A stretch of DNA of 60,573 nucleotides from the NCBI GenBank assembly GCA_041687115.1, contig JAWLCP010000004.1:88-60660 (forward strand), given 5' to 3'. The notes below the pieces were generated by a model that made no database searches, was not told where the DNA came from, and saw only the letters and a program-made list of their open reading frames with translations. The DNA is from Anaerolineae bacterium (lineage in GTDB: Bacteria; Chloroflexota; Anaerolineae; B4-G1). Below, piece after piece: positions 14,673 to 36,871 of the stretch (positions are counted from its first letter, which is position 1; every line of letters begins with the position of its first letter). The translations under genes and the position numbers were made by a program.

Positions 14673-14711
14673 TGCAACATTCTTCGTAAGGAGCGTACGA
14701 CTGGCGCGGAG
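14673..14711 (+). repeat. Truncated copy (boxes 1-2) of the 123-bp regulatory module
   Basis: TGCAACATTCTTCGTA-N7-TACGACTGGCGCGGAG, with the same spacing as the full copies; joins the pepF relic at GAG. Confidence 0.75.
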
Positions 14712-15764
14712 CCCGACCTGGCGATCTACAGGCATTACGTCGAGGACCTGGAGCGCCAGAAGGAGCACGTCCGCTCGAGCGACGTCGAAGAGGTTCTGGC
14801 GATGGCCATGGACCCGCTAAGTGGCGCCTCGTCGACTTATAGCGCTCTCACGAACGCCGACCTGCCTTTCGAGCCGGCGCGTGGCGAGGACGGCGAGGAA
14901 AGGGAGGTGGGCTTCGAGCAGGCAGTCGAGTGGATCTGCGCGGGGCTAGCTCCGCTGGGCGACGAGTACGTCGAGACGCTTCGAGCGGGCGCGATGGAGA
15001 AGCGCTGGGTGGATCGGGCGCGGAACAAGGGGAAGCGTCAGGGCGCCTTCTCCAGCGGCGCCTACGACACGCAGCCGTTCATCATGATGAGCTACGCCGA
15101 TGACGTCTTCAGCCTGAGCACGCTGGCCCACGAGCTGGGTCACTCGATGCACTCGCTGCTGACGCGGGAGAACCAACCCTACGTCTACGGCCGGTACTCC
15201 CTCTTCGTGGCCCAGGTGGCCTCCAACTTCCATCAGGCGATGGTGCGCGATTACCTGTTCCGCACGGAGGAGGATCCCGACCTCCCGTTGGCCCTCATCG
15301 AGGAGACCATGTCGAACTTCCACCGCTACTTCTTCATCATGCCGACGCTGGCGTGGTTCGAGCTGGAGATGCACCAGCGGGTGGAGCAGGGGGCGCCGGT
15401 TAACGCCCGGACGATGATCGATCTGACGGCGGATCTGTTCAACGAGGGGTATGGTGAAGAGATCGTTACTGATCACGATCGCAGCGGCATCACCTGGGCA
15501 CAGTTCGCCCACATGTACATGAACTTCTACGTCTACCAGTACGCGACCGGAATCTCCGGGGCCCATGCCCTGGCCGATCGGGTGCTGGCTGGCGAGCCGG
15601 GGGCGGCGGAGGCGTACGTCGAGTTCCTGAGTTCAGGCGGCTCGGTCTATCCCCTCGACGCGCTCAAAGCCGCCGGGGTGGATCTGACCACGCCGGAGCC
15701 GGTGGAGAAGGCCTTCGGATCACTGGCGGAGGTAGTAGATCGGCTGGAGGCGTTGGTGCTGTGA
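14709..15764 (+). pseudogene. pepF: Truncated, internally deleted oligoendopeptidase F paralog
   Basis: Highly similar to 47832-49637, but lacks about 130 N-terminal aa and 119 internal aa. The zinc-ligand motif AEVASN reads AQVASN. Confidence 0.88.
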
Positions 15765-15858
15765 TCATGCTGAACCGGCAACCACGTGCCCCCATCTGTG
15801 CCGAATAGGCCAGTAGGTAGCCAGGGTCGTCGGTGCGCGGGCGTAACGGCTAGCAGGA

Positions 15859-15981
15859 TACAACATTCATCGTAGATCGAATACGATGAGCGTGGAGAAG
15901 GATCGTCCTCAGGACGGTCCTTTTTTCGTACCGCCAATCGAACCTTCTTCCGATGACAGTGGGCTCCGTCTGGCGTACACT
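15859..15981 (+). promoter_or_regulatory. 123-bp repeated regulatory module, copy 1
   Basis: TACAACATTCATCGTA...hairpin AAGGATCGTCC-TCA-GGACGGTCCTT...ATGACA-N17-TACACT. Confidence 0.85.
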
Positions 15982-16131
15982 AGGAACGACCCTGATTCGG
16001 GGTTCCTCTGATCCATGGCCTTAGTGATTCTGTATTGGCCCGCCGGCGGGGACTGGGCGAGGTGACCGTTCTGAGGCTGCCGGTGCTGTCGCTCCGGCAA
16101 GAGACGAAGACCCAATAGAGGAGAGCAGACG

Positions 16132-16367
16132 ATGACGACTCAAGCAATCCCCCGCTCCGACGACTGGCGGAGAAGCTCCTGGGTACAGGTGCTCGCCATC
16201 GTCATAGGCTACGGCTCAACCTACGTCCCGACGGTGGTCGCTCAACTGGGAGGAGATCAGCCGTCGGCTATCACGCCTTCGGCCGGGTCGCGCCTTTGAT
16301 GCTCGCGCACTATCTTCACGACGCCGTTCAGTTCGCAGCGGTCTATATCATAGTGAATGGATTCTGA
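16132..16367 (+). pseudogene. Internally deleted membrane protein, probable CPBP relic
   Basis: GAGGAG RBS plus MTTQAIPR...; a second frame reads YHAFGRVAPLMLAHYLHDAVQF, like the C-terminal HxxxD/N motif of CPBP proteases. Confidence 0.5.
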
Positions 16368-16453
16368 TATCGTTCGGGATCGTGCGCACCGGTTCGATCA
16401 TCAGACGCGCGAGAGGGCGACGGCGGCAAAGCCGCTGAGCCCTGGGATCGTAT

Positions 16454-16939
16454 ATGGGAGGACGTACCGTGTGGACAGAGACCGAAATCAAGCCGCGGTG
16501 GGCAGCGCTCACTGTTTGGGGTGTGGTGAACGCGGTCAACGTCCTGCAGGCTACGGGGTTCACCTCGCGGGTGTGGACCGGAGATAGGGCGATCAACCAC
16601 CTCCTGGGCCGCGTGATCATCGCCCTCGCAGCGCCAGCAGCTGTGGCGCTATTCGCTTTCCTTCGTGCCCGAGCTGGCTGGCTCCAGGGGGTTGGCCCGG
16701 CTGTGTACCTCGTCTTCATCGCCCTAGAGCTCGCTGTCGATTACCTCTGGCCCGTTGAGTTCCGGTCTCCCGTGAGGCCCGAGATTCTGGTGCCCTATCT
16801 GGTGCTCTTCTTCGGGTCGATTCTGCTGATGGGGCTGCCCATGTTCGGCGCCAACCGGCAGTTGTGGCTCGTCACCGTGGTCACCACCGTGCTACTGCTG
16901 GGGTCGATGGTCGTGGCAATGCGCCGAAGCGTTGCCTGA
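16454..16939 (+). CDS. Hypothetical membrane protein (paralog of 41926-42363)
   Basis: About 5 TM; shares DY..(x)..R.P.R..I.VPY.VL...P....R.LW with 41926. Confidence 0.8.
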   Translation: MGGRTVWTETEIKPRWAALTVWGVVNAVNVLQATGFTSRVWTGDRAINHLLGRVIIALAAPAAVALFAFLRARAGWLQGVGPAVYLVFIALELAVDYLWPVEFRSPVRPEILVPYLVLFFGSILLMGLPMFGANRQLWLVTVVTTVLLLGSMVVAMRRSVA

Positions 16940-17013
16940 GGCTCCTATGGTGGCAGCTGGCTACATCTGGTCAGGACCCAGCTGATCGAGCGCGGCGACA
17001 GGAGGATTCACAT

Positions 17014-17484
17014 ATGAGAAGCCTGGTCGTCTACTACTCCCTATTCGGAAACACGCAGAGAATCGCGGAAGTGATCGCTGAAAGACTGGAGGAGGAAGGG
17101 CACGTGCGCGTGGTCGGGGCGGACCAGCTGACTACCTCTGACCTGGACGGGGTCGACCTGGTCGTGCTGGGGAGTCCAACCCACCGTATGAACGTGCCCG
17201 AGACGGTGCGACCTGTTCTGGAACGGTTGCCCAAAGGGGCGCTCCAGGGCGCATCCGTCGCCGCTTTCGATACGTCGTACAAGATGTCCGCACTGTTGAG
17301 TCGTTTCACTGCGGTGCCGAAGTTGGCCCGAAGGCTGCGCAAGCTTGGCGGGACACCCCTCGTCCCACCGGAGACCTTCCACGTGCTGGGAAGGGAGGGC
17401 CCGCCATATGACGGCGAGATCGAGCGGGCGAGGGCGTGGGCGGACTCGATTCTCGCAGGGCTCGGGAGCACGCGTGGCCGCTAG
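17014..17484 (+). CDS. Flavodoxin family protein
   Basis: YYSLFGNT FMN loop, LGSPTH, AAFDT; GGAGGA RBS. Confidence 0.88.
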   Translation: MRSLVVYYSLFGNTQRIAEVIAERLEEEGHVRVVGADQLTTSDLDGVDLVVLGSPTHRMNVPETVRPVLERLPKGALQGASVAAFDTSYKMSALLSRFTAVPKLARRLRKLGGTPLVPPETFHVLGREGPPYDGEIERARAWADSILAGLGSTRGR

Positions 17485-17500
17485 TACCGATTCGTGAGGA

Positions 17501-18406
17501 ATGAATCACCAGCAGGAGGCGAGAATGTCCAAGGTCAAGCGAGCCATTCTGCTCTCGTTTCGCCTGGCACTCACGTGCGTAGCTATGGGGGTCGCCTACC
17601 TCCTGAGCACGATGGTCATTGGCGAGACCAACGTACCGATGACGGCAGAGGAGGCGGGTCAGGCCGGTATAGCGCTCGTGTTTGTCTCCTCAGTTAATGC
17701 GCTGGTGCTGTCGTCAATCATCCTGCGGTCGCCCCGGCACGGGTTGAAGCTCATCGGCCTGGTGATCCTGGTTCAGTTCGGCGTAGAGACGCTGATGACG
17801 CAGATCGAGACACTGTACTTCAACAGCGCACTAAGGATGGGAAGTGGTGAGTTTGCTGCTATTGTCGCTGCAGGTGCCCTCCGGGCGCTGATCTTCTCGC
17901 CTCTTGCCGTTCTCATTCTGGGGAAGACGAGGAAGTCGGTGAAGCCGGAGGAGCAGAGGGCGACGGCAGCTCTGTCCAGCCGGGTCAAGCGCTTCGCTGC
18001 GCTGGCGGTGTTCTACGTGGTTGTCTACTTCTTCTTCGGCTACTTCGTGGCTTGGCAGTGGGAGGAGACGCGCACGTTCTACGCGGGGAATACCGCCATT
18101 GAGCCGTTTCTCAGACACTTCGGCGATCTCTTCCTCAGGGAGGATCCGGTCATCATCCCATTCCAACTGCTGCGAGGCGCGTTGTGGACCGGGCTTGCCC
18201 TTGTCATCGTGCGTATGATACGGGCCAGCCGGTGGGGAACCTCGCTGGCAGTGGCCTTGACGTTTGCGGTGCTGCTATCCCTGCCGATTGGACTGTTTCC
18301 CAATCCATACATGCCGCCGATGGTGCGCCAGGCGCACTTCTATGAACTGGCCTCCTCTATGCTAGTATTTGGCGGCATCGCAGGTTGGGTCTTGCACACC
18401 AACTGA
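17501..18406 (+). CDS. Hypothetical multi-pass membrane protein
   Basis: About 8 hydrophobic segments; alternative start at 17525 with an AGGAGG RBS. Confidence 0.8.
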   Translation: MNHQQEARMSKVKRAILLSFRLALTCVAMGVAYLLSTMVIGETNVPMTAEEAGQAGIALVFVSSVNALVLSSIILRSPRHGLKLIGLVILVQFGVETLMTQIETLYFNSALRMGSGEFAAIVAAGALRALIFSPLAVLILGKTRKSVKPEEQRATAALSSRVKRFAALAVFYVVVYFFFGYFVAWQWEETRTFYAGNTAIEPFLRHFGDLFLREDPVIIPFQLLRGALWTGLALVIVRMIRASRWGTSLAVALTFAVLLSLPIGLFPNPYMPPMVRQAHFYELASSMLVFGGIAGWVLHTN

Positions 18407-18498
18407 GGCAGCGGACGAACGTCCTTCATTGGCCGGACGAGCTGCCTGGTACCCATGGTTTGAAGATGGGGAAGGAAGGATAGAAGAGGCGCCATCAC

Positions 18499-18687
18499 AT
18501 GAAGAGGTCTCGGTTCATCGTTAGCATCGCCATGTTGATCGTCGGCATCGCCCTGGTCGCCGTGGCTGTGCTGATGGTCCTGTTTGGAAACGACTCTAGC
18601 GCCGTCGCAGCGCCGATCGGTGTCCCTGGTCTGGCGCTTATCGCAGCCTCGGGTCTGGTGCTCACCGCGCCCTCGCGGAGGCAGTAG
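18499..18687 (+). CDS. Small 2-TM protein (paralog of 42429-42587)
   Basis: MKRSRFIVSI...AVLMVLF...GLALIA..SRR; AGAGG RBS. Confidence 0.65.
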   Translation: MKRSRFIVSIAMLIVGIALVAVAVLMVLFGNDSSAVAAPIGVPGLALIAASGLVLTAPSRRQ

Positions 18688-18852
18688 ATCGCCCATCTGC
18701 CCCGGAAGCGCTGACCGCTGCGAGCTAAGTCCCCAGGTCGTCCGGGATGGGTCGTGGAAAGCCGCTTCAGGGCCCTTCTGTCATTGGGAGCCGGGAGGGG
18801 CGGGAGAAGCAAGATCGGTTGCGTGAGACAGTGAATAGGGGAGGACCCGACG

Positions 18853-19683
18853 ATGGCGAGACAGAAGACTCCGTGGTTGTATCTTATTATGGCCTACGGG
18901 CTGGCCTGGCTCTTCTGGATCCCGGTGGCGCTTACCGGCCGGGACTATCAGGCCTCGCCTATTCTACTCCTGCTGACGTTGATAGGCGTCTTCGGACCCG
19001 GTCTGGCGGGCATCATCCTCACCTACGCCCGGGAGGATCGAGGAGGGCGACGCGACTTCTGGCGACGGACCTTCGATCTGCGCCGCACTCGTCCCCGCTG
19101 GTACGTGCTGATCGTCGTCCTCTGGCCAGCCGGGCACCTGGTGAGCACCGCCGTCAGTCGGTTGCTGGGGGCCTCGCTGCCGGACCCTCCGCTTCTGCGG
19201 GAGCTGGCCGCCCAACCGGTTACCATTCCGGTGGTCCTGGTCCTCTATCTCCTCCAGGCCGGGCTTGAGGAGCTGGGCTGGAGGGGCTACATGCTCGAGC
19301 GGGTCCAGCGTACCCGGGGGCCTGTAGAGAGCTCACTGATCGTGGGACTCTTCCACGCCTTCTGGCACCTCCCGATGTTCTGGGTCGTGGGGACGAACCA
19401 GATAGAGATTGGGTTCGGGCTCGATTTCCTGCTATTCATCGCCACCGCGGTCTCGTCGTCCTTCTACGCGACGTGGTGCTACAACGACAACGGCCGCAGC
19501 ACGCTGGCGGCCACGCTGCTGCACTGGACGGGCAACCTGTGCATCGATCTATGCACCGACGGGCCCGGTACGCTGGAGTACCGTGTCTACACGGTGGTGA
19601 TGGTACTGGGTGCCCTGGCGATCGGGGCGGTGTGGAGCGAACGGGCCGGGAAGGGCAAGCGAGCTCGGGTGGTGGGTGCCTAG
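18853..19683 (+). CDS. CPBP (CAAX/Abi) family intramembrane metalloprotease
   Basis: EELGWRGY, HAFWHLP and HWTGN motifs. Confidence 0.92.
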   Translation: MARQKTPWLYLIMAYGLAWLFWIPVALTGRDYQASPILLLLTLIGVFGPGLAGIILTYAREDRGGRRDFWRRTFDLRRTRPRWYVLIVVLWPAGHLVSTAVSRLLGASLPDPPLLRELAAQPVTIPVVLVLYLLQAGLEELGWRGYMLERVQRTRGPVESSLIVGLFHAFWHLPMFWVVGTNQIEIGFGLDFLLFIATAVSSSFYATWCYNDNGRSTLAATLLHWTGNLCIDLCTDGPGTLEYRVYTVVMVLGALAIGAVWSERAGKGKRARVVGA

Positions 19684-19820
19684 AGGAGCTCGAGCAGGTT
19701 CCAGTGGGAGAAGGATGGATGGATAGCGAGTAGAAGCGTCGATGGTCTACGACCCGGACACAGGCACCGTCACCCAGCAGTGGGTCATCTATACGCCGGC
19801 CGAATCACAGGGAGGGAATT

Positions 19821-20597
19821 GTGAGCGGAGAGACCAAGTTGAAGCCGATGCCCCTGTGGCTGTCAGCGCTGTTCTTCGGTGTGCCCACTACGATCGGCGT
19901 CGTCGCCTTGTACGTCGTGATGCCAGCCCTGGCTCACTCCGGACTCTCCCTTTTCTGGAACTACATGCTGACCGTGGTGGCGATGTTCCCCCTGCTGCTT
20001 GGTGCCGCGCTCGTTGGCTATCGCGTGGAGGGACGCGCCTTCTCTTGGGATGGTCTCCGTAGCCGTTTCCGCATCTTCCGGCTCGACCGGGAGGACTGGC
20101 CGTGGACGGCCGGCTTGCTGGTCGTCTATGTGGGAGGGCAGCTGCTGCTCATGCCGACGGCGAAGTGGCAGGCGTCGGTTCTGCCGATTCCACTTCCCGA
20201 GGGGCTTCCGCACGCCCTCGACCCTCGGGTGGCGAAGACGTCCATTCCTGCAGACTTCCTTGGCGTCCCGCTGCGAGGGAACTGGGGCATGGCGCTGGTG
20301 TACTTGCTGATCCTGAGCTTGAACGTCGTCGGGGAGGAACTCTGGTGGAGAGGCTACGTGCTCCCACGGCAGGAGCTTGTTCACGGCAGATGGACGTGGT
20401 TGGTGCACGGGATCCTGTGGACGCTGTTCCACGCCCCATTCTGGTGGAATTTGATCGCACTCCTGCCCTCGACGCTGTCTCTGTCATTCGTCTCGTCGCG
20501 CTTCGGTAAGACGACACCGGGCATCATTGTGCACTTCGTGAACAACGGGCTCGGATATGTCATGATCCTCCTTGGCATCCTGGGACTAGGATCCTGA
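19821..20597 (+). CDS. CPBP family intramembrane metalloprotease
   Basis: EELWWRGY, WTLFH and HFVNN motifs. Confidence 0.9.
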   Translation: MSGETKLKPMPLWLSALFFGVPTTIGVVALYVVMPALAHSGLSLFWNYMLTVVAMFPLLLGAALVGYRVEGRAFSWDGLRSRFRIFRLDREDWPWTAGLLVVYVGGQLLLMPTAKWQASVLPIPLPEGLPHALDPRVAKTSIPADFLGVPLRGNWGMALVYLLILSLNVVGEELWWRGYVLPRQELVHGRWTWLVHGILWTLFHAPFWWNLIALLPSTLSLSFVSSRFGKTTPGIIVHFVNNGLGYVMILLGILGLGS

Positions 20598-20750
20598 CCA
20601 AGAGTATGTCCCAGGCAGCATCCGATTCGCCGATCCTTCGGCAGCCGGCGGAGACCCAGGGCCGGTGCCACCCGAACCAGGCGTACAGGCGGTGAGATAC
20701 TGGAGAGCGAGTCAATAGACGGTCGCGGCGCAAAGGGAAGAGTGTCCAGC

Positions 20751-20778
20751 TTGCCCCGTAGGCAGTCGGCGATACAAT
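20751..20778 (+). promoter_or_regulatory. sigma70-like promoter
   Basis: TTGCCC-N16-TACAAT upstream of yjbQ. Confidence 0.45.
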
Positions 20779-20850
20779 GGTGGTCAGAGCCGACCCCACT
20801 CCCGTTCACTCGGGCAAATCGCCTCAACACTTGGTTCGCAAGGAGGGTTC

Positions 20851-21270
<420 letters not shown>

Positions 21271-21375
21271 CAGGGCGCGGAGTTATCTTGCGCGCGCTCG
21301 CTTGAGGCTCTGCTAGGCTAGGGCGGGGCACGTTCCTGTTGGGATTGGCGGGCTTATGGTTCTAGGAGCGCTACT

Positions 21376-21693
21376 ATGAGGGACACATCGTTCCGGAGCA
21401 CTGCTCTGACACGAGTCCTTAGCACATATGCCATCGTGATGTTCGCGATGATGTGGGTCGCGTTCGCTATTGCACTAGTTGTGAACCCTGAGCGGCTGGA
21501 CGTGCTGTGGAATTGGGTGCGGGCGCTGCCCTCGGTGGCCGAGATCATTGTCTGGGTGTTGTTTCTCCCTGGTATGGTGGGGCTCTGGATCTGGGAATCC
21601 TCTTGGTCAGCTCTCGTACGCCTGTTGGCATCTGCGGGAATCGTCGCCTGGACCGTCGTTGCTGTGTCCAGCTTCCTGCGAGCCGTGAGGTAG
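21376..21693 (+). CDS. Small hypothetical membrane protein
   Basis: 3 TM, Trp-rich; AGGAG RBS. Confidence 0.75.
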   Translation: MRDTSFRSTALTRVLSTYAIVMFAMMWVAFAIALVVNPERLDVLWNWVRALPSVAEIIVWVLFLPGMVGLWIWESSWSALVRLLASAGIVAWTVVAVSSFLRAVR

Positions 21694-21787
21694 GCTTGCC
21701 TACGCGGGCCAGGGGTCACACCAGGTGAAGCGTCCTTCGCACCAAGTTCTGGAACAGGAAGATTCCGCGTGACTGTTCACGCGACGT

Positions 21788-21844
21788 GACGAACTCGGCG
21801 GCGTCGAGCGCAAGCGCGTGCTGGTCACAATCACCGGGGAGTGA
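21788..21844 (+). pseudogene. yjbQ 3'-end remnant
   Basis: DELGGVERKRVLVTITGE* versus [18 protein letters not shown] of yjbQ. Confidence 0.65.
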
Positions 21845-21900
21845 GCCTCGAATGCGTTCCGAGGCACGGGGGGGACCCGCGGGGTGATCGGAGGTGTGCT

Positions 21901-22860
21901 ATGAGATCATTTCTGCTGCGCGAGTGGCAGGCGTTTCTGCGGTATGAGGAACTTCCCGGGGGCGCACCACCGATCCTCTATCTCAGCGGCCTGGGTATGC
22001 CGTCGCACGCGGTGCTTGCCGCCGTCGTGGCTCAACACGCGGTGCTGGCCGCGCGCCGCTCCGTATTCATCGACCTTCTGGGTTGCGGCTTCAGCGATGC
22101 GCCCGACGATTTCGACTACACGCTGGAGCAGCACACGCGTACGGTGGCGATGCTGCTGGACCATCTGGGCGTAGCAGGCTGCGACGTCGCGGGGTACAGC
22201 ATGGGGGGAGCGGTGGCCATCACGCTGGCGGCAACCCGTCCTGATCTCGTGTCGCGTCTGGCCCTCTTGGAGGCGAACCTCGACCCTCTCGGTCCCGGCG
22301 AAGGGGCCATCAGCACGGGGATTGCCTGTCAGACCGAGGAAGCGTTCTGTGCCGAAGGGTTCGACGACTTGCTCGCCTTCTGTCGCCGAGGCGGGCTGGA
22401 GGGAGACGACACGGCAGCAGCTTTCGCCGGCGCGATCCAGGTGGCCGCGCCGCACGCCCTCCACCGCAGCGCCGTCCACCTGGTCCGAGCGACCAGGCCG
22501 ACCATGCGGGAACGGCTGTTGGAGATGGATATGCCGCGGGCCTACATCTTCGGAGAGAAGTCACTGCCCGATCCTGACTATGATGCGCTGGCTCGCGAGG
22601 GTATCCCGGTCTTGATCGTGTCCGAGGCCGCGCACGGCATGCTCTTCGACAATCCAGCCGGCGTGGCCGAGGCCCTGGCTCTATCCTTTGGGATATCACG
22701 GCGAGATGGGCGTGTCTGGCGCCCTGTGCGGCCTCCTGCCGAGAGCCCCATTGCTTCGAGATTGGCTCCTTCCGGACATCTTCACCCTCTCCTGGCTCAC
22801 GCTGCTCTCATCGATCGTAGGCACCCGCCAGATACAACATTTGTCGTACGCGACCTATGA
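21901..22860 (+). CDS. Alpha/beta hydrolase, copy 1 (aberrant C-terminal extension)
   Basis: GYSMGG nucleophile elbow; near-identical to 33046-33818. After AEAL it reads on into non-homologous DNA and into module copy 2. Confidence 0.85.
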   Translation: MRSFLLREWQAFLRYEELPGGAPPILYLSGLGMPSHAVLAAVVAQHAVLAARRSVFIDLLGCGFSDAPDDFDYTLEQHTRTVAMLLDHLGVAGCDVAGYSMGGAVAITLAATRPDLVSRLALLEANLDPLGPGEGAISTGIACQTEEAFCAEGFDDLLAFCRRGGLEGDDTAAAFAGAIQVAAPHALHRSAVHLVRATRPTMRERLLEMDMPRAYIFGEKSLPDPDYDALAREGIPVLIVSEAAHGMLFDNPAGVAEALALSFGISRRDGRVWRPVRPPAESPIASRLAPSGHLHPLLAHAALIDRRHPPDTTFVVRDL

Positions 22861-22955
22861 GCTCTGTGGAGAGGAACCGGCTCCGAGACGGTCCTTTCTT
22901 CGTAGGCTAATTCCGCCTTTCCTTTGATGACTGCGCCGGTGTCTCGTTGTACACT
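22833..22955 (+). promoter_or_regulatory. 123-bp repeated regulatory module, copy 2
   Basis: TACAACATTTGTCGTA...AGACGGTCCTTTCTTCGTA...ATGACT-N17-TACACT; aligns to copy 1 without gaps. Confidence 0.85.
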
Positions 22956-23187
22956 GAGCAACAGCGGCCCCTGGACATCAGCGTGGCCCTTCTGCCGTCT
23001 CTTGGGGCAGGCTACTTCGCGTCGGCTAGGGCAGGGATCGCCGGTGCGATCGAGAGTGGGCTGGGCCCTTCACTGCGGCAGGGACGACGGTGGCGACTGC
23101 TTCCGCGACTGAGAAAGACCGAGACCCGTCATGCAGCGGCCGATGCTGGTCACCCGGACCCAGTGGATTCAAAGGAGGAGAGAGACA

Positions 23188-24237: not shown

Positions 24238-24295
24238 GCAAGGCCCCATGATCGGCGTCGGAATCCGTGTGTGAGACAATGGAGGTTTGGGCACC

Positions 24296-26618: not shown

Positions 26619-26708
26619 GTACCATAGACAGGATCGATGAACATCCGTCCGTCCCATCCATCTGTTCGCAGGCGAACTCATTGCTGCGAGTGCCGAGTTC
26701 GAGGACTT

Positions 26709-26816: not shown

Positions 26817-26887
26817 CAATGCGAGAGGAGACGGATGCGCCAGGCCCCTCTGTGATTCCAGTCCCGGGATGCGAGTGAGATCTTGAG

Positions 26888-28180: not shown

Positions 28181-28299
28181 CCCAGGGGATAGGACTTGCG
28201 CAGCAATTCTGCATCATCGCCGTTGGCGGGATGCGGCGAGGTGACTCTCCGGGAGCCGTTGAGTTGCCGCTTGGTCGGGCACCTGGTGGAGAAGGACAG

Positions 28300-29309
28300 A
28301 TGACCACCGATGAGCGGGCCATCACGGTGCCCGGGGCACCGTCCATCTCCGGGCTGGCGTTTCGCCGTTTCCGTGGTGAGCCCGACTATCCGATTATGGT
28401 GGCCATCCTGAACGCCTGCGACGCCGCGGACGGGCTGGACCATGTCAGCACCATGGACGAGATCGCCCACGCGTTCGCCCACCTGAGGAACTGCGATTCA
28501 CGGCGGGACATGCTACTCGCCGAGATCGACGGGGAGACCGTCGCCTTCAGCCGCGTATCCTGGTCGCAGCAGGGCACGGGTGAACGTCTGTACAAGTGCT
28601 ATGGCTTCGTGCACCCCGACTAGCGGCGCCGGGGGCTCGGCACCGCGATGCTGCGCTACAATGAGCATCTCCTACGGAACATCGCTCGCGGGCATCCCGC
28701 GGAAATCCCTACGTTCCTCCGAGTCTGGGCAGCCGACACGGAGGTCGGTGCCCTGGCCCTGTACGCCAGCGTCGGCTACAGGGCCGTGCGGTACATCATT
28801 GAGATGATCCGCCCCATCAGCGCGCCCGTGCCGAACGCGCCGCTGCCGGTGGGTCTGGAGGTGCGGCCGGTCAAGCCGGGCCATATTCGCGCCATCTGGG
28901 AGGCCAGGTGCGAGGCGGGCCGCGACCACTGGGGCTACGTGGAGCCCAGCGACGATGACTACGAGCGCTGGGCTTCGGACCCGCTCTTCGCCCCGGAGCT
29001 GTGGAAGGTGGCCTGGGAAGGCGACCAGGTGGCGCGGGCATGGTGCTCAATTGGGTCGACGGGGAGGAAAACGACACATTCCAGCGCCAGCGTGGCTACA
29101 CGGAAGGCATCCTGGTGCGGCGATTCTGGCGGCGGCGCGGCCTGGCTCGCTGCCTTCTGGTGCGGAGCATCGAGATGTTCCGGCAGACGGGTATGGAGGA
29201 GACCACCCTGCGTGTGGACACGCAGAACCCTTATGGCGCCCTGCGGCTCTACGAAAGCATGGGCTACCGGGAGGTCCGCCGGCACGCTTTCTTCAACAAG
29301 GAAATGTAG
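28300..29309 (+). pseudogene. Tandem GNAT acetyltransferase, disrupted
   Basis: VHPD*RRRGLG (TAG at 28621) plus a CG duplication at 29035-36; second motif A 'WRRRGLA' and 'ALRLYESMGY'. Confidence 0.85.
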
Positions 29310-29542
29310 CCGCCGGGCAGTCCGTGACGGTGGTCGCTGTGGTGACGTAGCAGGATAGATCGTTTCTCATCAGAGAGTGTGCAGCGGTTGCCTTTCTCGG
29401 ACGGGCACTGGACGACAGCCTGATCGAAGTGCAGGGCGGGGCGGTGCGTCGACGGAGACGCGAAGTTGGCGCTCACCATCAATCTACGCTATGATCGTGC
29501 GGGAGAAACGACCAACACAGAGACGGATCCAGGGAGGCTAAC

Positions 29543-30730
29543 GTGACTCAGACGACCATCCGCCGGATGTCCACCGAAGAGGTACTGGGGCCGCTGTTCC
29601 GGCTGACCAGCTACTCGCTCCACCCCTCGCCCCCGTTTCGCGACGAGGACGACTGGGCGGACATCATCCGCGGGCGGAAGGGCGTCGTCTACTTCGCCAT
29701 GCTCGAGGGCGATGAAGCAGTCGCCACCGTGGCGGGCTCGGCGATGACGCAGCAGGTGCGCGGGGAGCTGTACGACGCGAGCGGCGTGTGGGGCGTGGTC
29801 ACCGACCCGGCCGCCCGCGGCAAAGGCTACTGCCGGCGCCTGATCGCCAGTCTGTTGGCCGCGCACCGCGACGAGGGGCGGCCGCTTTCGTGCCTCTACC
29901 CCTTCCGGGCCTCGTTCTATGAGAGACTCGGCTACGTGAAGTTGCCCCTTCCGCTCAGGGTCAGATTCGACCCGAAGGTGCTGCTGCCCCTGCTGAAGAA
30001 AGACCTGGGCGGAGAGGTCGAATTGATGCTGATCGGCGACGGCTACGACACCTATCGGTCCTATCTGTCGAGGCTGCAGCGACGCATCCACGGCATGGCC
30101 ATGTTCGTCCACGGCGAGAAGGAGCGGGCCCAGAGGACGAACCGGTCGTGGCTGGCGGTGGCGAAGGTAGATGGAGAGGTTGTCGGACTGATGCTGTACC
30201 GCCTCGAAGGGCAGGAGGTCACCCAGTTCACACTGCGAGCCCATCGCTTCTACTACGACAACAGTCGGGCTAAGTACTTGCTTCTGCAGTGGATATCACG
30301 CCACGTCGACCAGGCCAGCGAGGTCGAGCTCTGGCTGTCCCCCTTCGAGCGGCCAGAAACCTGGCTCGCCGACCTGCACGTCTCCGCTGAGTCCTTCGCG
30401 CGGGGACCGATGGGACGGGTGGTCGACGTGGCCGGTCTGGCGGGGATGGAGATTGGGCCGGGTCGCTTCACGGCCCGGGTCAGTGACCCCCTCTGCCCCT
30501 GGAACGAGGCGGTGTGGCGATTTGAGACCGAGGATGGACGGCTGCGGGTTGGCCCCGGGAACCAGGCCGACTCCGAGCTCACCATCCAGGCGATGGCCGC
30601 GCTCATCTACGGGACCCACGACCCGGCCGACTTCGTCTTCCGCAACTGGGGCGACCCGCCAGAGGCACTGCGGGCCACGATGCGGACTATGTTCCCTCCC
30701 CAAGTGCCCTATCTGCACGAGATGTTTTGA
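29543..30730 (+). CDS. Eis family GNAT acetyltransferase
   Basis: VVTDPAARGKG, LYPFRASFYERLGY, MGRVVDV, DPLCPWN, SCP2-like C-terminus. Confidence 0.88.
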   Translation: MTQTTIRRMSTEEVLGPLFRLTSYSLHPSPPFRDEDDWADIIRGRKGVVYFAMLEGDEAVATVAGSAMTQQVRGELYDASGVWGVVTDPAARGKGYCRRLIASLLAAHRDEGRPLSCLYPFRASFYERLGYVKLPLPLRVRFDPKVLLPLLKKDLGGEVELMLIGDGYDTYRSYLSRLQRRIHGMAMFVHGEKERAQRTNRSWLAVAKVDGEVVGLMLYRLEGQEVTQFTLRAHRFYYDNSRAKYLLLQWISRHVDQASEVELWLSPFERPETWLADLHVSAESFARGPMGRVVDVAGLAGMEIGPGRFTARVSDPLCPWNEAVWRFETEDGRLRVGPGNQADSELTIQAMAALIYGTHDPADFVFRNWGDPPEALRATMRTMFPPQVPYLHEMF

Positions 30731-30969
30731 GCAGGATGCCGCCACTTGGAAGCATCCGTTGGGAGATGAGATGTCTGTGGAAGTGGGTGACATATCCAAT
30801 AGAGGAATCATCGTGGTCAGATCGGCCAGGACCGTTCGGGATACTCAATAGTTAGCCAGTCAAGGGGAAGATACTCCAAGACTACTCCAGTGGAGACTAA
30901 GGGCGAACGTCTCCTATCATATTCGCCCCCTCGATTGCGGAGTGACAGTGCCCAAAGGAGAGAAGCATA

Positions 30970-31974
30970 GTGCGTCAGGTTGAGATAGTAGGCTCATACT
31001 ATGAACTAGGCTTGAAGTATGGGAGGTTCGTAGCTGAGAACAAGCTAGACTGGTGGTGGAAACAGCCAACTGAGTCCGCTCTCGCGCCTGTCAAGGAATG
31101 TGAGCGTGAGATCGCAGTCCACGCTCCAGGGTTACTGGAAGAAATCAAGGGCATCGCTGAGGCCTGCGAGAGTGACTATGACCTGGTCCTGGCCAACATG
31201 ACGGTGAGCTACTGGGAGCTGTCTGCCTGCAATGTCGTTGCTGTCTCCGGAAATCAATGTCGACATGGTAGGACGATCTTTGCGCGCAATCATGACTGGC
31301 TTGATGAGGATCAAGAGTGGGTGACCTGTTTCAGAACGCATGCCAGTACCGGCCTACGGCACATCGGATTTGGATTCGCAGATGTGGGACGATCTGGTGG
31401 CGTCAATCAAGAGGGGCTCGCGATCTCTAGCGCCGCGATTTGATATCTGAACAAGCCAAAACCTGGTCTCCGGTCTCACCTCGCTACACGCTGGGTACTG
31501 GACACATACTCAGACACACGGAGCGCGGTGGACTATCTTGAGCGAATCCCCCATTACGAGGCCGTGTCGTTCTTGATTGCAGACAAGGAGGGACATATCG
31601 CTCGCGTGGAGGCCGCGCCTGAAGGCGTAGACGTTGCCTTGACCCAGGACGGCATGCTTGCAGCCATCAACTTAATCCAATCGGAAGGGATGGAGCACCT
31701 TGAACGCATTGCTGAGGAAGGATACATTGTCTATCGACACAAGGCGCGCATTGCGGCCTGGTACGACCACCACAAAGGCCAGATTGACCTGCATACTGCA
31801 AAGAGGCTATGCAGCGACCACGAGATCGGTCTTTGCGATCATGGCGAGACCAGGTCTGAGCCCTTCGGCACGATCTATTCCTGGGTCGCTGAGCTAGGCA
31901 CAGGTGAAATTCACGTCGCTCACGGAAGACCATGCGAGAACGAGTACAAGGTTATCGAGCTTGAAGTGTCATAG
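30970..31974 (+). pseudogene. Peptidase C45 family (Ntn, acyl-CoA:6-APA acyltransferase-like) with an in-frame TGA
   Basis: GSYYELG..YG, EEIKGIAE, ACNVVA..ARNHDW, GVNQEGL. TGA at 31441, then the same frame continues to GRPCEN. Confidence 0.82.
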
Positions 31975-32124
31975 TGAATGCCGAGGTGATGACCCATATG
32001 CCCCAGTTGGGTGTCGTGAATGGTTCAGGTCAGCTTTCAGAACTTCCCGCCGACGCAAAGCAGAAACAAGATTGAGATGAAGAGAATGAGAAAAGCAGTA
32101 GATAGACTAAGTAAGGAGGCAACC

Positions 32125-32637
32125 GTGGAACCGAAGATCATCAAACAAGGCGAGATGACCATCGTCGGCATGGTCTACTATGGCAACCCCTTCAAAGACG
32201 TGGGGGGCGCGCCTGAGCAAAACGAGGTCGGCAAGCTGTGGACGCGATTCAGCACCTATTGGGATAGCCATAGCGAGGCGTTCAAACACGAGGTCAACCC
32301 CAGCGTGGGATGGGAATTGCACATCACCACCGACGAGTATGAGGAGACCAAAGAGTACTATGTGATGGTTGGCATAGAGGTGTCCAGAATCGAGGATCTG
32401 CCCGGGCCCATCTTTGCCAAGGTGCTCCCCGCCGGGCAATACGCGGTGTTTACGCTCGAAGGCGAGCAGATGAACAGCAACTGGGGAGATGCCATCTACA
32501 AGGAATGGCTGCCCTCATCGGTCTATGAGGAAGCCATCGGGTGCACCATCGAGCGCTATGATGAGGACCGCTTCAAAGGATGGGGCGACCCAGGCTCTGA
32601 GGTTGACATCTGGGTGCCGGTCAAGCCCAGACAGTAA
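32125..32637 (+). CDS. GyrI-like small-molecule binding protein
   Basis: LPAGQYAVFT, IYKEWLP, IERYDE, EVDIWVPV; TAAGGAGG precedes GTG 32125. Confidence 0.88.
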   Translation: MEPKIIKQGEMTIVGMVYYGNPFKDVGGAPEQNEVGKLWTRFSTYWDSHSEAFKHEVNPSVGWELHITTDEYEETKEYYVMVGIEVSRIEDLPGPIFAKVLPAGQYAVFTLEGEQMNSNWGDAIYKEWLPSSVYEEAIGCTIERYDEDRFKGWGDPGSEVDIWVPVKPRQ

Positions 32638-32647
32638 AGGACTGAGG

Positions 32648-32950
32648 ATGGGGCTCTCTTCGCCTGACAGTGTGAATGGATCCGAGGAACCGCGTGAACC
32701 GAGTGTGGTGAGCATACTGCTGAGGCTTATGGCCTATGTGCTCATTCTAGCGGCGATCTTGCTTGCGTCTGCTGGTCGCTTGGACTGGGTGATGGGTTGG
32801 ATCTACATGGCTCCTTATGCTTGTGTGACCGTCTTCGGTGTGCTCGTTGTGCCGCTAGACCCAGGATTGATTGAAGAACGCACCCGGATCAACGAGGGGA
32901 CGAAGGAGTGGGACAAGCGCATCTCGGTCGTTGGACGTGCGCTATACCCT
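32648..32950 (+). pseudogene. N-terminal fragment of an isoprenylcysteine carboxylmethyltransferase-like membrane protein
   Basis: LLASAGRLDWVMGWIY...LIEER....KEWDK, then loss of similarity. Confidence 0.6.
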
Positions 32951-32957
32951 TCGGCTC

Positions 32958-32993
32958 AAGCGCAGGCGGGTGGTCACGATCATCGGGGAGTGG
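32958..32993 (+). pseudogene. Second yjbQ 3'-end remnant
   Basis: KRRRVVTIIGE(W) versus [11 protein letters not shown]. Confidence 0.55.
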
Positions 32994-33045
32994 GCCCTAG
33001 ATAGCTGGCGGATACCAGGTGACCGAGAGGGAGTGGAGGTGTCTT

Positions 33046-33843
33046 ATGAGATCATTTCTGCTGCGCGAGTGGCAGGCGTTTCTGCGGTATGAGGAACTTC
33101 CCGGGGGCGCGCCACCGATCCTCTATCTCAGCGGCCTGGGTATGCCGTCGCACGCGGTGTTTGCCGCCGTCGTGGCTCAACACGCGGTGCTGGCCGCGCG
33201 CCGCTCCGTATTCATCGACCTTCTGGGTTGCGGCTTCAGCGATGCGCCCGACGATTTCGACTACACGCTGGAGCAGCACACGCGTACGGTGGCGATGCTG
33301 CTGGACCATCTGGGCGTAGCAGGCTGCGACGTCGCGGGGTACAGCATGGGGGGAGCGGTGGCCATCACGCTGGCGGCAACCCGTCCTGATCTCGTGTCGC
33401 GTCTGGCCCTCTTGGAGGCGAACCTCGACCCTCTCGGTCCCGGCGAAGGGGCCATCAGCACGGGGATTGCCTGTCAGACCGAGGAAGCGTTCTGTGCCGA
33501 AGGGTTCGACGACTTGCTCGCCTTCTGTCGCCGAGGCGGGCTGGAGGGAGACGACACGGCAGCAGCTTTCGCCGGCGCGATCCAGGTGGCCGCGCCGCAC
33601 GCCCTCCACCGCAGCGCCGTCCACCTGGTCCGAGCGACCAGGCCGACCATGCGGGAACGGCTGTTGGAGATGGATATGCCGCGGGCCTACATCTTCGGAG
33701 AGAAGTCACTGCCCGATCCTGACTACGATGCGCTAGCTCGCGAGGGCATCCAGGTCTTGATCGTGCCCGAGGCCGGGCACGGCATGCTCTTCGACAATCC
33801 AGCCGGCGTGGCCGAGGCTTTGATCAGCGCTCTTGCGAGCTGA
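33046..33843 (+). CDS. Alpha/beta hydrolase, copy 2 (intact length)
   Basis: GYSMGG, AGHG; GGAGG RBS. Confidence 0.9.
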   Translation: MRSFLLREWQAFLRYEELPGGAPPILYLSGLGMPSHAVFAAVVAQHAVLAARRSVFIDLLGCGFSDAPDDFDYTLEQHTRTVAMLLDHLGVAGCDVAGYSMGGAVAITLAATRPDLVSRLALLEANLDPLGPGEGAISTGIACQTEEAFCAEGFDDLLAFCRRGGLEGDDTAAAFAGAIQVAAPHALHRSAVHLVRATRPTMRERLLEMDMPRAYIFGEKSLPDPDYDALAREGIQVLIVPEAGHGMLFDNPAGVAEALISALAS

Positions 33844-33876
33844 GCGCCACTGGAGCAGAAGGCGCCCCGCGCCGGA

Positions 33877-33999
33877 TACAACATTGATCGTAGGGACCGT
33901 ACAACCACCGTGGAGAAGGGCGGTCTCCCAGACGGTCCTTCTCTCGTACTTCGAATCCGATCTCTGTCGGATGACAGGGGGCCCGTTCTGTGGTAGGGT
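33877..33999 (+). promoter_or_regulatory. 123-bp repeated regulatory module, copy 3
   Basis: TACAACATTGATCGTA...AGACGGTCCTTCTCTCGTA...TCCGATCTCTGTCGG-ATGACA-N17-TAGGGT. Confidence 0.85.
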
Positions 34000-34101
34000 G
34001 CAAGTGGGGACATCTGCGCTCTAGAATGTCGGGGAAGTCGGCAGAACAGTCTGGAGCCGTACTGGAAGGCATAGGGACTAGTTGTCAAGAGGGAGGCAGC
34101 C

Positions 34102-34416
34102 ATGATCGTGACGACCACGCCCACTGTGGAGGGGCACGTGGTTGAGGAGTACCTGGGCGTCGTGACCGGCGAGGCGATCCTGGGCGTGCACATCGGCCGG
34201 GATATTCTGGCTGCGGTCACGGACATCGTTGGCGGGCGATCGGTGGAATACGAAGAGGAAGTGCGCGAGGCGCGGCAGGCAGCCCTGGAGGAGATGGCGG
34301 CCGAGGCAAGCCGCAGAGGGGGAAACGCAGTGATCGGTGTCGACATCGACTACGAAGTGATCCGCGAAGGGATGATGATGGTGGCCGCCAGCGGCACAGC
34401 GGTGAGGATCGCGTAG
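34102..34416 (+). CDS. ybjQ: YbjQ/UPF0145 family protein
   Basis: MIVTTTPTVEG..YLGVVTGEAI..DIVGGRS..NAVIGVDIDY..ASGTAV. Confidence 0.93.
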   Translation: MIVTTTPTVEGHVVEEYLGVVTGEAILGVHIGRDILAAVTDIVGGRSVEYEEEVREARQAALEEMAAEASRRGGNAVIGVDIDYEVIREGMMMVAASGTAVRIA

Positions 34417-34450
34417 ACCCGCCGCTCACCCGCCATAGAGTGAGGGATCG

Positions 34451-35365
34451 ATGACCATCAACGAGTCAGCGAACCGCGTGGTCCTCATGACCAGGGGGTT
34501 GCGCAAGTCCTATGGTCCCGTGCGAGCCCTGCGAGGCGTGGATCTAGAGGTGCGGCAGGGCGAGATCTTCGGCTTTCTCGGCCCCAACGGGGCGGGCAAG
34601 ACGACTACCATCCGCTGCTTGCTGGACCTGATTCGGCCCGACGGCGGCACAGTTCGCGTCCTGGGCATAGACCCTCAGGCCGATCCGGTAGCGGTTCAGG
34701 CGCGCTGCGGCTACCTCCCGGGCGAGCTTCGGCTGAACGACAACATGACCGCCGAGCGTCAGCTCCGGTTCTTGAGCGACATGCGGGGCGGGACGGTTGA
34801 CTGGGGCTTCACCCGCGAGCTCGCCGAGCGACTTGATCTAGCTATGGGCCGACCGATCAAGAACCTGTCGAAGGGGAACAAGCAGAAGATCGGCGTGGTG
34901 CAGGCGCTGATGCACCGTCCGGATTTGCTCTTGCTGGACGAACCGACGGCTGGTCTCGATCCGCTGATGCAGCGGGAGGTTCTGGGACTGATCGAGGAAG
35001 CCCGGGCCGACGGGGCCACGGTCTTCTTCAGCTCGCACGTCATCAGCGAGGTGCAGGCGGTGGCCGACCGCGTGGCGATGATCCGCCAGGGTGAGATCGT
35101 CGAGGTGGCCGAGACCTGGTCTCTCATCGACCGGGCCCTGCGCCACGTGTCCATCGAGTTCAAGCGGCCGATTGGGCCTGACGCCCTTTCCGGTCTGCCG
35201 GGAGTGATCGTGCTCTCCTGGAGCGATCGCACGCGGGTCGACCTGCAGGTCAAGGGCGACATGGAAGGGCTGATCAACGCGCTGAGCGGCCTGCCGGTCC
35301 GCGACCTGGAGACGAGCAAGCCCTCTCTGGAAGAAGTGTTCGTAAGGGCCTACGAGAAGAGCTGA
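34451..35365 (+). CDS. ABC exporter ATP-binding protein
   Basis: GPNGAGKTT, LSKG, LLLDEPT, SSH. Confidence 0.95.
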   Translation: MTINESANRVVLMTRGLRKSYGPVRALRGVDLEVRQGEIFGFLGPNGAGKTTTIRCLLDLIRPDGGTVRVLGIDPQADPVAVQARCGYLPGELRLNDNMTAERQLRFLSDMRGGTVDWGFTRELAERLDLAMGRPIKNLSKGNKQKIGVVQALMHRPDLLLLDEPTAGLDPLMQREVLGLIEEARADGATVFFSSHVISEVQAVADRVAMIRQGEIVEVAETWSLIDRALRHVSIEFKRPIGPDALSGLPGVIVLSWSDRTRVDLQVKGDMEGLINALSGLPVRDLETSKPSLEEVFVRAYEKS

Positions 35366-35384
35366 GGTCACAAGGGGGCGTGAC

Positions 35385-36239
35385 ATGTGGATCACACTGC
35401 GCTGCACACTGTCCTCGCTGCGGGGACAGATCATCGGGTGGGGCCTGGGCGTGGCGGCGCTGGGACTGATTCTGATCCCGTTCTACGACGTCTTCATGGC
35501 GGAGCAGGCGGACTTCCTGGAGATGGTCGAGAATTATCCCCCAGAGTTCCTGGCGTTCTTCGGCGGGGACGCGGCGAGCCTGGCCACGACTGAGGGATAT
35601 CTGGGGATGTATGCCTTCTCCATGCTCCCGGTCATCGTCGGCATCTTCGCCGTGATCGTTGGGAGCGGCCTCTTGGCCAGCGATGAGGAGAGCGGCCGGC
35701 TGGATCTGATCGCCGCCTATCCGGTGAGCCGGGCCGGGCTTTTCTGGGGGCGGAGCCTGGCCTTCGTGGGAGCGAGCCTTGGCATCCTGACCCTGGGCTG
35801 GCTCGGCTTCACCGCCCTGCTGGGTGGCTCGAGCTTGGACGTGGGATGGGGGCAGATGGCCCTGCCCTTCCTGCCGCTGCTGGCGCAGACGCTGGTCTAC
35901 GGCGCGCTGGCGCTGCTATTGAGCATGCTCCTGCCCGCCCGACGACTGGCGGGGGCCGTCGCCGGCGGCGTGATGGTGGCCAGCTACTTCCTGTCGTCGA
36001 TGTCGGGCCTGGATGAGAGACTGGCAACCGTCGCCCAGTTCCTGCCCTATCACTACTTCCAGGGGGGTGACGCGCTCAACGGGCTGGACTGGGCCTCTTT
36101 GCTCGGTCTGCTGGCGGTGGCGGGCGCGCTGTCCGTGCTCGCCTGGTGGCGCTTCGAGCGGCGAGATATTCGCGTGGCCGGCGAGGGTGACTGGCGCCCG
36201 CCAATCCCACGCTTCGCCAGACGGACAGAGACCGCGTAG
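35385..36239 (+). CDS. ABC-2 family permease
   Basis: 6 TM; 'DEESGRLDLIAAYPVSR', 'FERRDI'. Confidence 0.88.
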   Translation: MWITLRCTLSSLRGQIIGWGLGVAALGLILIPFYDVFMAEQADFLEMVENYPPEFLAFFGGDAASLATTEGYLGMYAFSMLPVIVGIFAVIVGSGLLASDEESGRLDLIAAYPVSRAGLFWGRSLAFVGASLGILTLGWLGFTALLGGSSLDVGWGQMALPFLPLLAQTLVYGALALLLSMLLPARRLAGAVAGGVMVASYFLSSMSGLDERLATVAQFLPYHYFQGGDALNGLDWASLLGLLAVAGALSVLAWWRFERRDIRVAGEGDWRPPIPRFARRTETA

Positions 36240-36267
36240 AGGATCCGCGCCTTCCAGAGCTTCGCTC

Positions 36268-36390
36268 TACAACATTCATCGTAGATCGCGTACCATCAGC
36301 GTGGAGAAGGACCGTCTGCGAGACGGTCCTTCTTGCGTATGGCAGATCCCTCTTCCTTCTGATGACGGCGACGGGGTTCTGTTGTACACT
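36268..36390 (+). promoter_or_regulatory. 123-bp repeated regulatory module, copy 4
   Basis: TACAACATTCATCGTA...perfect 13-bp stem AGAAGGACCGTCT-GCG-AGACGGTCCTTCT...ATGACG-N17-TACACT. Confidence 0.87.
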
Positions 36391-36835: not shown

Positions 36836-36871
36836 AGCGAAAACGGGGGTCAATCCCCAGCATGGGGGATA

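Follow-up and report, generated by a model that had tools for sequence, protein, structure and literature searches.

In a 60,573-nucleotide stretch of an Anaerolineae bacterium genome (assembly GCA_041687115.1, contig JAWLCP010000004.1, positions 88 to 60,660; hereafter, the window), a non-coding module of 123–136 bp is present in four full copies and one truncated copy. The repeat is real and constitutes a conserved terminator–operator–promoter composite of Anaerolineae that has been amplified in this genome. Most likely it ends transcription of the upstream gene and, under the control of the neighbouring signal-sensing regulator, turns on the genes that follow. Accordingly, we regard the module as probably a regulator-dependent promoter cassette with a built-in terminator, belonging to a two-component regulon of the LiaR/VraR-like kind.

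Module copies, anatomy and distribution

The four full copies lie on the + strand at 15859-15981 (copy 1), 22833-22955 (copy 2), 33877-33999 (copy 3) and 36268-36390 (copy 4). As a first-pass annotation of this DNA had claimed, they align over 123 bp free of gaps, which first appear ~25 nt past the -10 element, and they are mutually 63–71% identical. Box 1 occupies 15859-15874, 22833-22848, 33877-33892 and 36268-36283, respectively, with a TAC half-site at 15882 in copy 1, and the hairpin cores are located at 15898-15922 (followed by TTTTTT), 22872-22896, 33916-33940 and 36307-36331, with T-runs near 15930, 22904, 33948 and 36339. The predicted promoter pairs -35 ATGACA (15953-15958) with -10 TACACT (15976-15981) in copy 1, ATGACT (22927-22932) with TACACT (22950-22955) in copy 2, ATGACA (33971-33976) with TAGGGT (33994-33999) in copy 3 and ATGACG (36362-36367) with TACACT (36385-36390) in copy 4, in agreement with the ATGACN-N17-TACACT/TAGGGT layout described earlier. 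The additional truncated copy was likewise found, at 14673-14711 on the same strand as the full copies, and retains box 1 TGCAACATTCTTCGTA and the 7-nt spacer, with box 2 breaking off after GCGGAG.

The box 1 pattern TACAACATTNNTCGTA, allowing up to two mismatches, occurs five times in the window, always on the + strand, against 0.05 expected, and the box 3 pattern GACGGTCCTTNNNNCGTA occurs four times against 0.30 expected; neither count was reached in any of 100 shuffles. Across the whole assembly (239 contigs), box 1 yielded five forward and no reverse matches, and a control pattern none in either direction. A covariance model run with filters off over the whole window recovered the four full copies at E-values of 4e-25 to 3e-21 and the truncated one at E 0.0036 (14669-14717), the remaining matches being only hairpins read from the opposite strand. 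No further copy of this layout, termed type-A, was found elsewhere in this assembly.

The covariance scan of the genome and its relatives proposed in the first-pass annotation recovered the window copies together with ~45 further copies in related Anaerolineae metagenome-assembled genomes (MAGs). Model R1, built from the four window copies, found the module in 11 of 101 related genomes, this one (G000) included; with G000 set aside, it was present in 7 of 12 genomes of the genus, 9 of 47 of the family and 1 of 27 and 0 of 26 of two sister families. Model R2, built from 31 copies, extended this to 18 of the 48 family genomes, with 1–13 model matches per genome. Independently of either model, an exact 18-base pattern from the promoter half matched 19 stretches among 185,579 species genomes, 18 of them in 12 MAGs whose titles read Anaerolineales, Anaerolineae or Chloroflexia; the remaining one, from a Peribacteria MAG, had no model match and is attributed to chance. 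By our own arithmetic ~17 chance matches would be expected over all bacteria, so the signal lies in their concentration in one lineage. Contigs such as L058, L060, L062, L065 and L068 (from G010, G003, G078, G088 and G082) often end 150–450 nt past the regulator gene or within the module. Contig ends at the module are consistent with a repeat that breaks short-read assembly, and the MAG copy numbers are therefore lower bounds. The literature listings yielded no paper describing the module.

Conservation was scored over 28 type-A copies, with offsets counted from the T of box 1. The conserved block begins a few bases before box 1 and stops directly after ACTG. Within it, TAC at offsets 0–2 is kept in 24 copies and GTA at 13–15 in 26, and a second TAC half-site, 7 bp past this 7-2-7 site, is kept at offsets 23–25 in 23. 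GTGGAG follows at offsets 33–38, after which the stem AAGGACCGnC (39–48) pairs with GnCGGTCCTT (54–63) and runs directly into a T-run. Between hairpin and promoter, conserved patches take the form CGTA-N7-TC-N10-C, with C68 and G69 invariant (28/28), GTA at 69–71 in 25 copies and TC at 79–80 in 23. The promoter half is the most uniform, GATGAC at 93–98 and TAnnnT at 117–122 each being present in 27 of 28 copies and ATGAC(A/G) in 25, and the 17-nt stretch between the two hexamers is not conserved. The four-box layout proposed earlier needs correcting in one respect: box 2 in its right half and box 3 in its left half form opposite arms of a single hairpin, which that layout missed. Nor does the 7-2-7 palindrome noted for copy 3 in box 4 extend generally to the other copies. 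A small ORF through the hairpin (e.g. 15886-16011) was also considered and rejected, no start codon being conserved among copies.

Mean pairwise identity among the 28 copies is 0.58, with a minimum of 0.39, and yet the module measures 135–137 nt in 25 of them and 129–132 nt in the other three. Such constancy of length at 58% mean identity supports the earlier proposal that spacing is under selection.

Repetition of this kind raises the question of a mobile or recombination element, either a miniature inverted-repeat transposable element (MITE) with an outward promoter or an attC-like cassette junction. The module is indeed repeated and heads cassette-like cargo, one gene of which is the 'integron-associated' Cass2, the truncated copy is a recombination junction and the contigs of relatives often break at the module. 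However, the consensus has no terminal inverted repeats, the flanks are unconserved, and flank repeats in 24 copies amount to 0–5 nt, which is chance level. Matches are few in each genome, every copy faces along its downstream gene, the window copies are diverged enough to be old, and orthologous copies keep their downstream gene across species. The first-pass annotation had named random orientation with target-site duplications as the mark of a MITE; the five forward and no reverse occurrences in the assembly, and the lack of target-site duplications, do not bear that mark. An integron attC site was rejected as well. Such a site is an imperfect palindrome over its full length, bounded by RYYYAAC and GTTRRRY, whereas pairing in the module is confined to the central 17-bp stem, TACAAC at one end and ctGGTAcACT at the other are non-complementary in the consensus, and units between copies hold up to eight or more genes. 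No integrase or transposase domain was detected among the window ORFs scanned. A mobile element is thus highly improbable.

Correia/MITE-type elements are short intergenic repeats able to supply promoters and terminators to their neighbours, and the module resembles them to that extent. It differs in its lack of terminal inverted repeats and target duplications, in its low copy number and fixed orientation, and in that its copies are old, diverged and linked to one regulator gene.

A predicted terminator and promoter at fixed spacing

Covariation identifies the hairpin as a conserved element. On a MAFFT alignment that had not been fitted to any structure, 78.6% of stem cells are paired, against 49–51% with slid partners, and both-sided changes occur in 37 cells, compared with 18.7 in shuffles, none of 500 of which attained 37, and 13–26 when slid; the model-fitted alignment gives the same picture. 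RNAalifold, applied to both strands, predicted the hairpin alone, on the + strand, with a central 17-bp stem, and on the 31-row MAFFT alignment it predicted no structure. Strand assignment is aided by core-stem wobble pairs (26 G-T against 16 A-C), which lean mildly to the + strand, and more strongly by the T-run, which is found exclusively on that strand, with 2–5 T in the 8 nt past the stem and two more T inside it. Given this G+C-rich covarying hairpin followed by a U-run, we read the element as a predicted intrinsic terminator for the upstream gene.

Hairpin strength varies with the direction of the upstream gene. Most copies with a co-directional upstream gene have hairpins of -15 to -28 kcal/mol, whereas the five copies with a divergent upstream gene (L055, L054:5645, L051, L052 and L050:2375) range from -6.9 to -15.2 kcal/mol and all fall among the nine weakest of 29, a comparison tempered by its comprising five related copies and crude gene calls. 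One co-directional copy is also weak (-8.3 kcal/mol), and one further copy sits at a contig start, where the upstream side is unreadable. The five decayed copies still measure 135–136 nt, and their boxes 1 and 2 are still recognisable. Decay of the stem where the upstream gene is divergent indicates that the stem serves the upstream transcript, and the persistence of boxes and length without it indicates that the boxes are independent of the stem and that the length constraint acts on DNA. Relative to rho-independent terminators, the module shares a G+C-rich stem of 10–17 bp, a loop of 3–5 nt, ~4–6 T on the upstream coding strand and covariation; it departs from them in that its stem sequence is conserved among paralogous copies, its length is kept where the stem has decayed and its T-run is short in copies 2–4.

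The same covariation and + strand U-run could also belong to a structured RNA extending from box 1 through the hairpin, such as a small RNA from the 3' untranslated region of the upstream mRNA or an attenuator. In such an RNA, TCGTA of box 1 and TACGA of box 2 could pair, as they do in 74% of cells against 20–46% when slid. However, both-sided changes in that helix are found in only three of seven pairs, a level that shuffled or slid controls also attain, and 12 of the 28 copies break its C-G pair. RNAalifold shows no helix besides the hairpin, no promoter precedes box 1, and a search of the whole window against Rfam 15 gave no family match at the gathering threshold. Moreover, the divergent-upstream copies, which receive no incoming transcript and have decayed hairpins, keep box 1, box 2 and exact length. 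We therefore attach very little weight to a structured RNA.

Downstream of the terminator, (C)GATGAC(A/G)-N17-TAnnnT reads as a predicted sigma70-type promoter: the hexamers stand at 17-nt spacing, the -10 is conserved at T1, A2 and T6, and the functional positions are the conserved ones. Genes 3' of the module are co-directional in nearly all gene maps and, in most of them, start 20–250 nt or more past the -10. A second candidate promoter, TACAAC-N17-TACGAT within boxes 1 and 2, was rejected because only about one copy in three has its last T.

A sister module (type-B) has a related layout, in which GTCATTTG(T/A)C boxes recur at ~22-bp intervals, accompanied by a hairpin, GTCTTCTGACCGATG(T/C)G and a -10 TATGAT. 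Its -35 is poor (GATGTG/GATGCG), and CGATG is invariant in both module types. This invariance, and a GATGAC kept more strictly (27/28) than is usual for a housekeeping -35, would suit an alternative-sigma promoter, in which CGATGAC-N17-TAnACT is the recognition sequence and the upstream boxes are accessory or UP-like. We consider this improbable: the -10 has the housekeeping TAnnnT pattern, no sigma-factor gene stands beside any copy in gene maps in which some of the ORFs were Pfam-checked, and box 1 and the link to the regulator would go unexplained.

Metatranscriptomes bear on the region as well. Parts of 33000-37400 are contained in 11 runs from three studies, all as assembled Logan contigs, which carry no information on transcript starts, ends or strand. 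Contigs of four runs, placed on 17500-37400, are scattered pieces with adapter-tagged ends and no clustered starts or ends.

A predicted operator and its candidate regulator

Box 1 has the geometry of a NarL-type operator. The 7-2-7 arrangement recognised in the first-pass annotation was borne out, the TAC and GTA ends occurring together in 23 of 28 copies, and the 16-bp type-A consensus is TACAnCA-TT-nnTCGTA. Its outer ends match the NarL/LiaR pattern, and its inner bases are weakly symmetric. Palindromic 7-2-7 variants occupy the same offset in three relatives (TACCAGAAACCTGGTA in G015, TACATCAATTGGTGTA in G101 and TACGCCATCCCGCGTA in G102), and G027 has an extra box 1, 23 bp upstream of the first.

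According to the excerpt of PMC4549865, a NarL site consists of inverted heptamers 2 bp apart, e.g. TACCCCTAAAGGGGTA, and narG is activated by NarL from -89 and -195; according to that of PMC4447274, LiaR and CesR sites are 16-bp inverted repeats, with the CesR motif TCAGHCTnnAGDCTGA. Compared with the Escherichia coli NarL operators in the first excerpt, which include an engineered narG -89/-89 site, the module has the same 16-bp, 7-2-7 form with outer TAC...GTA, additional single heptamers nearby and a far-upstream position, and in both systems the regulator combines a receiver (REC) with a GerE/LuxR helix–turn–helix (HTH). It differs in the inner four bases of the heptamers, which are poorly symmetric in type-A, and in being a predicted site of an Anaerolineae MAG that lies ~122 bp from the expected start, beyond a terminator.

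The candidate regulator of the module is a LiaR/VraR-type protein of the NarL family encoded at 13725-14435 on the + strand, in which Pfam identifies REC and GerE HTH domains. Its closest solved structures are those of VraR/LiaR (5hev, E 2.9e-60), followed by DevR and NarL. Synteny would single it out: in seven other genomes a type-A module lies 3' of its orthologue, at 3 (G103), 18 (G007), 24 (G015), 35 (G027), 56 (G101), 81 (G013) and 257 nt (G012), that is, at 3–257 nt; the next genes are usually those for a small membrane protein and a receiver-only protein. In G003, G034 and G068 no module was seen after the orthologue, the downstream sequence there being short or the contig ending. Orthologues of the receiver-only gene at 36872-37246 lie downstream of the module in G012, G027, G006 and G103, with 56–68% identity in the first three. 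In G006 (L041, G006:C35, local 4300-9853), a MacB-type ABC transporter, consisting of an ATPase and a 1588-aa protein with four FtsX repeats, sits between the regulator gene and the module.

Two further genes precede the regulator. A sensor histidine kinase of 1733 aa (longest ORF) is encoded at 6812-12013 (+ strand), with Reg_prop repeats, Y_Y_Y, three GAF, HisKA_3 and HATPase_c domains in Pfam, and its orthologues adjoin module copies in G012, G007, G006, G027 and G013. Between kinase and regulator, at 11815-13623 (+ strand; longest ORF, the true start probably being later), Pfam identifies a fusion protein that joins a response regulator with a LuxR/GerE HTH and a SpoIIE/PP2C phosphatase domain. 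The REC–HTH part of this fusion is 64–65% identical to the neighbouring NarL-type regulator, and the fusion is conserved beside the kinase in G007 and G012 (64–66% identity). A second kinase (941-5161, - strand, 1406 aa), with PAS, four GAF and HisKA_3 domains, is divergent from a third NarL-type regulator at 4911-5801; the count of three local NarL/GerE-domain regulators given earlier is thus correct for the window.

Type-B modules are likewise associated with regulators, following paralogous kinase–regulator pairs (58–66% identity) in G028, G039, G018 and G016. The recognition helices of type-A and type-B regulators are nearly identical and offer no counterpart to the differences between their boxes. 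In this genome, type-B modules occur at 3144-3280, 11135-11248 and 11981-12117 of G000:C31 (L083) and at ~3855-3905 on the minus strand of G000:C127 (L084), and their operons encode a YkuD L,D-transpeptidase, DUF3160, a serpin and Yip1 with a MacB-type ABC transporter. The type-B promoter is also found between such a kinase–regulator pair and groES-groEL (Pfam: Cpn10, Cpn60).

Several observations weigh against a regulator-dependent cassette with a terminator. Consensus scans of 17000-36900 listed neither the promoters of copies 2–4 (8 of 12 positions or a weak -10, at a threshold of 9/12) nor their terminators (3–4 T in the 8-base window), so these elements are sub-consensus. One RNA contig (33615-34324) spans copy 3 unbroken, which implies either read-through RNA or DNA in the RNA library. 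The type-A heptamers of box 1 share just TAC and one more base, the left heptamer is absent in three copies (G013, G007), and box 1, centred ~122 bp upstream of the expected start with the terminator in between, is far away for a simple activator. The genome encodes 18 GerE-domain proteins, among which gene neighbourhood is the sole basis for choosing the regulator. Finally, at 12 further loci of regulator homologues (61–87% identity), R1 with filters off found module-like sequence only at L069 and L065 and a partial hairpin at L058; R2 added L067, and several of these contigs end 150–640 nt past the gene.

A different assignment is a terminator combined with an ordinary or repressed promoter, in which the boxes would be bound by another factor, the regulator would act as a repressor or the REC–HTH–PP2C fusion would be the binding protein. 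The type-A promoter (-35 ATGACA/G, 17-nt spacer, -10 TACACT) is fairly near consensus, so that an activator may be unnecessary; C-N-GATG over the -35 is strongly conserved and persists in sister modules despite an otherwise poor -35, as would suit an operator; and the three GerE-domain regulators of the window and 18 of the genome offer other binders. Against this, synteny in seven other genomes ties the module to the orthologue of 13725-14435, and the poor -35 of the sister type is typical of activated promoters. We judge the assignment unlikely, though less so than an alternative sigma factor, and its sole departure from the regulator-dependent cassette concerns whether control is positive or negative, or which protein binds.

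For the regulator-dependent cassette, we propose the following mechanism. In response to a putative signal, the GAF/HisKA_3 kinase would phosphorylate the LiaR/VraR-like regulator, dimers of which would bind at box 1 as well as at the phased patches farther downstream, turning the promoter on (or off), and the terminator would stop transcription from upstream. With read-through blocked, each downstream operon would depend on the regulator alone.

Cargo, accretion and meaning of the proposed regulon

Reuse of one promoter architecture in front of unrelated cargo, as suggested in the first-pass annotation, is supported by the comparative data. Copy 1 is followed by an ORF with a ribosome-binding site (16132-16299) and then a 161-aa membrane protein (16454-16939); a relative's copy (L042, in G010), directly preceded by a 602-aa gene, has a left flank closely resembling that of copy 1. 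The copy 2 operon starts at 23131 and encodes an ATC hydrolase, a beta-lactamase-fold protein, an amidohydrolase and a GNAT protein, and the hydrolase ORF upstream of this copy extends 28 nt into box 1. Copy 3 precedes YbjQ (34102-34416) and an ABC-2 transporter (34451-36239), and module copies also precede YbjQ in G010 and G007. Copy 4 heads an operon at 36515-37246 (+ strand), with a glycine-rich small membrane protein (36515-36835) and the receiver-only response regulator (36872-37246), the same order as in G027, G006 and G012. Families encoded repeatedly behind module copies include receiver-only proteins (5), ABC ATPases (5), ABC-2 permeases, glycine-rich small membrane proteins (4) and YbjQ (3), with CAAX proteases, M23/S41/M1 peptidases, DUF2807, PadR, GNAT, ICMT and hydrolases among the other cargo, and one copy (L044) heads a paralogous kinase–regulator pair.

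From this synteny, we read copy 4 as the copy in the putative ancestral position, and the operon behind it as the first target. In relatives a module links the regulator gene with the receiver operon; here the truncated copy follows the former and copy 4 precedes the latter, so the 21.6 kb between these two copies, carrying copies 1–3, sits inside this ancestral junction. The truncated copy starts 238 nt past the stop codon of the regulator gene, where relatives have a full copy, and at 14708 joins a partial duplicate of an M3 oligopeptidase gene (14708-15764, + strand; ORF 14802-15764), whose 14708-14911 is 92% identical to 48224-48427. This duplicate, fused to the broken module copy, covers only positions 162-456 of the Peptidase_M3 profile; it is 5'-truncated and internally shortened relative to the intact gene at 47781-49637, and the shared blocks are 86–92% identical.

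Resemblance is greatest between copies standing before one and the same gene in different species, copy 3 being nearest to L014 (0.76) and L016 (0.70), the latter likewise preceding YbjQ, which indicates that the paralogous copies are old. In copies 1 and 4 of the window, shared sequence continues past the -10. The alpha/beta-hydrolase genes before copies 2 and 3 (21890-22680 and 33035-33830) share ~99% identity over a stretch that begins at the ribosome-binding site and reaches almost to the 3' end, and this similarity ends before the module and gives way to complete divergence, which looks like gene conversion inside an older duplication. Together, the shared flanks of copies 1 and 4 and the near-identical hydrolases before copies 2 and 3 point to segmental duplication as the route of spread, with gene conversion acting afterwards. 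Elsewhere in the island, ORFs 30970-31443 and 31528-31974 match N- and C-terminal parts of an AAT/peptidase C45 protein and are probably a split gene, and 31000-33000, which includes the Cass2/GyrI-like gene, has the lowest G+C content of the window (0.55–0.56).

The ancestral copy would thus have stood between the regulator gene and the small-membrane-protein/receiver operon, with further copies heading envelope-related cargo (ABC-2 transporters, YbjQ, CAAX proteases, peptidases and hydrolases), and in this genome four module-headed units would have accumulated within the ancestral junction. A bolder proposal, which we hold as doubtful though worth stating, is that the module is at once a length-locked nucleoprotein promoter and a portable 136-bp recruiting cassette: dimers at ~-122/-100 and ~-60/-40 would be held in fixed register across the terminator, and cargo operons would be gained by segmental duplication and recombination at modules, accumulating in cis in the interval that separates the regulator gene from its ancestral target. 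If true, such a cassette would build a regulon island without an integrase.

Also close in kind are the LiaR/VraR/CesR envelope-stress regulons of Firmicutes. The regulator is homologous to VraR/LiaR, and its putative operator has the 16-bp inverted-repeat geometry given in the excerpt of PMC4447274; in addition, the first target adjoins the regulator operon and includes small membrane proteins, and the cargo is envelope-rich (ABC transporters, peptidases, DUF2807 and PadR). In contrast to those regulons, a 1733-aa GAF/propeller kinase takes the place of LiaS with LiaF, a second regulator with a PP2C domain is present, the operator sequence differs and the unit is a length-locked 136 bp that includes a terminator. 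Each element of the module belongs to a known kind, and what is unusual is the length-locked composite together with its build-up next to the regulator gene.

The module marks candidate target genes of the neighbouring regulator and thereby gives a computed regulon for a two-component system of uncultured Anaerolineae, a group with almost no experimental genetics. A cis-element, a candidate regulator and ~45 predicted target operons across genera are defined, with cargo rich in envelope functions. With terminator, operator and promoter held at fixed spacing at 58% identity, the module offers a natural case for spacing constraint and for regulon growth by cassette copying.

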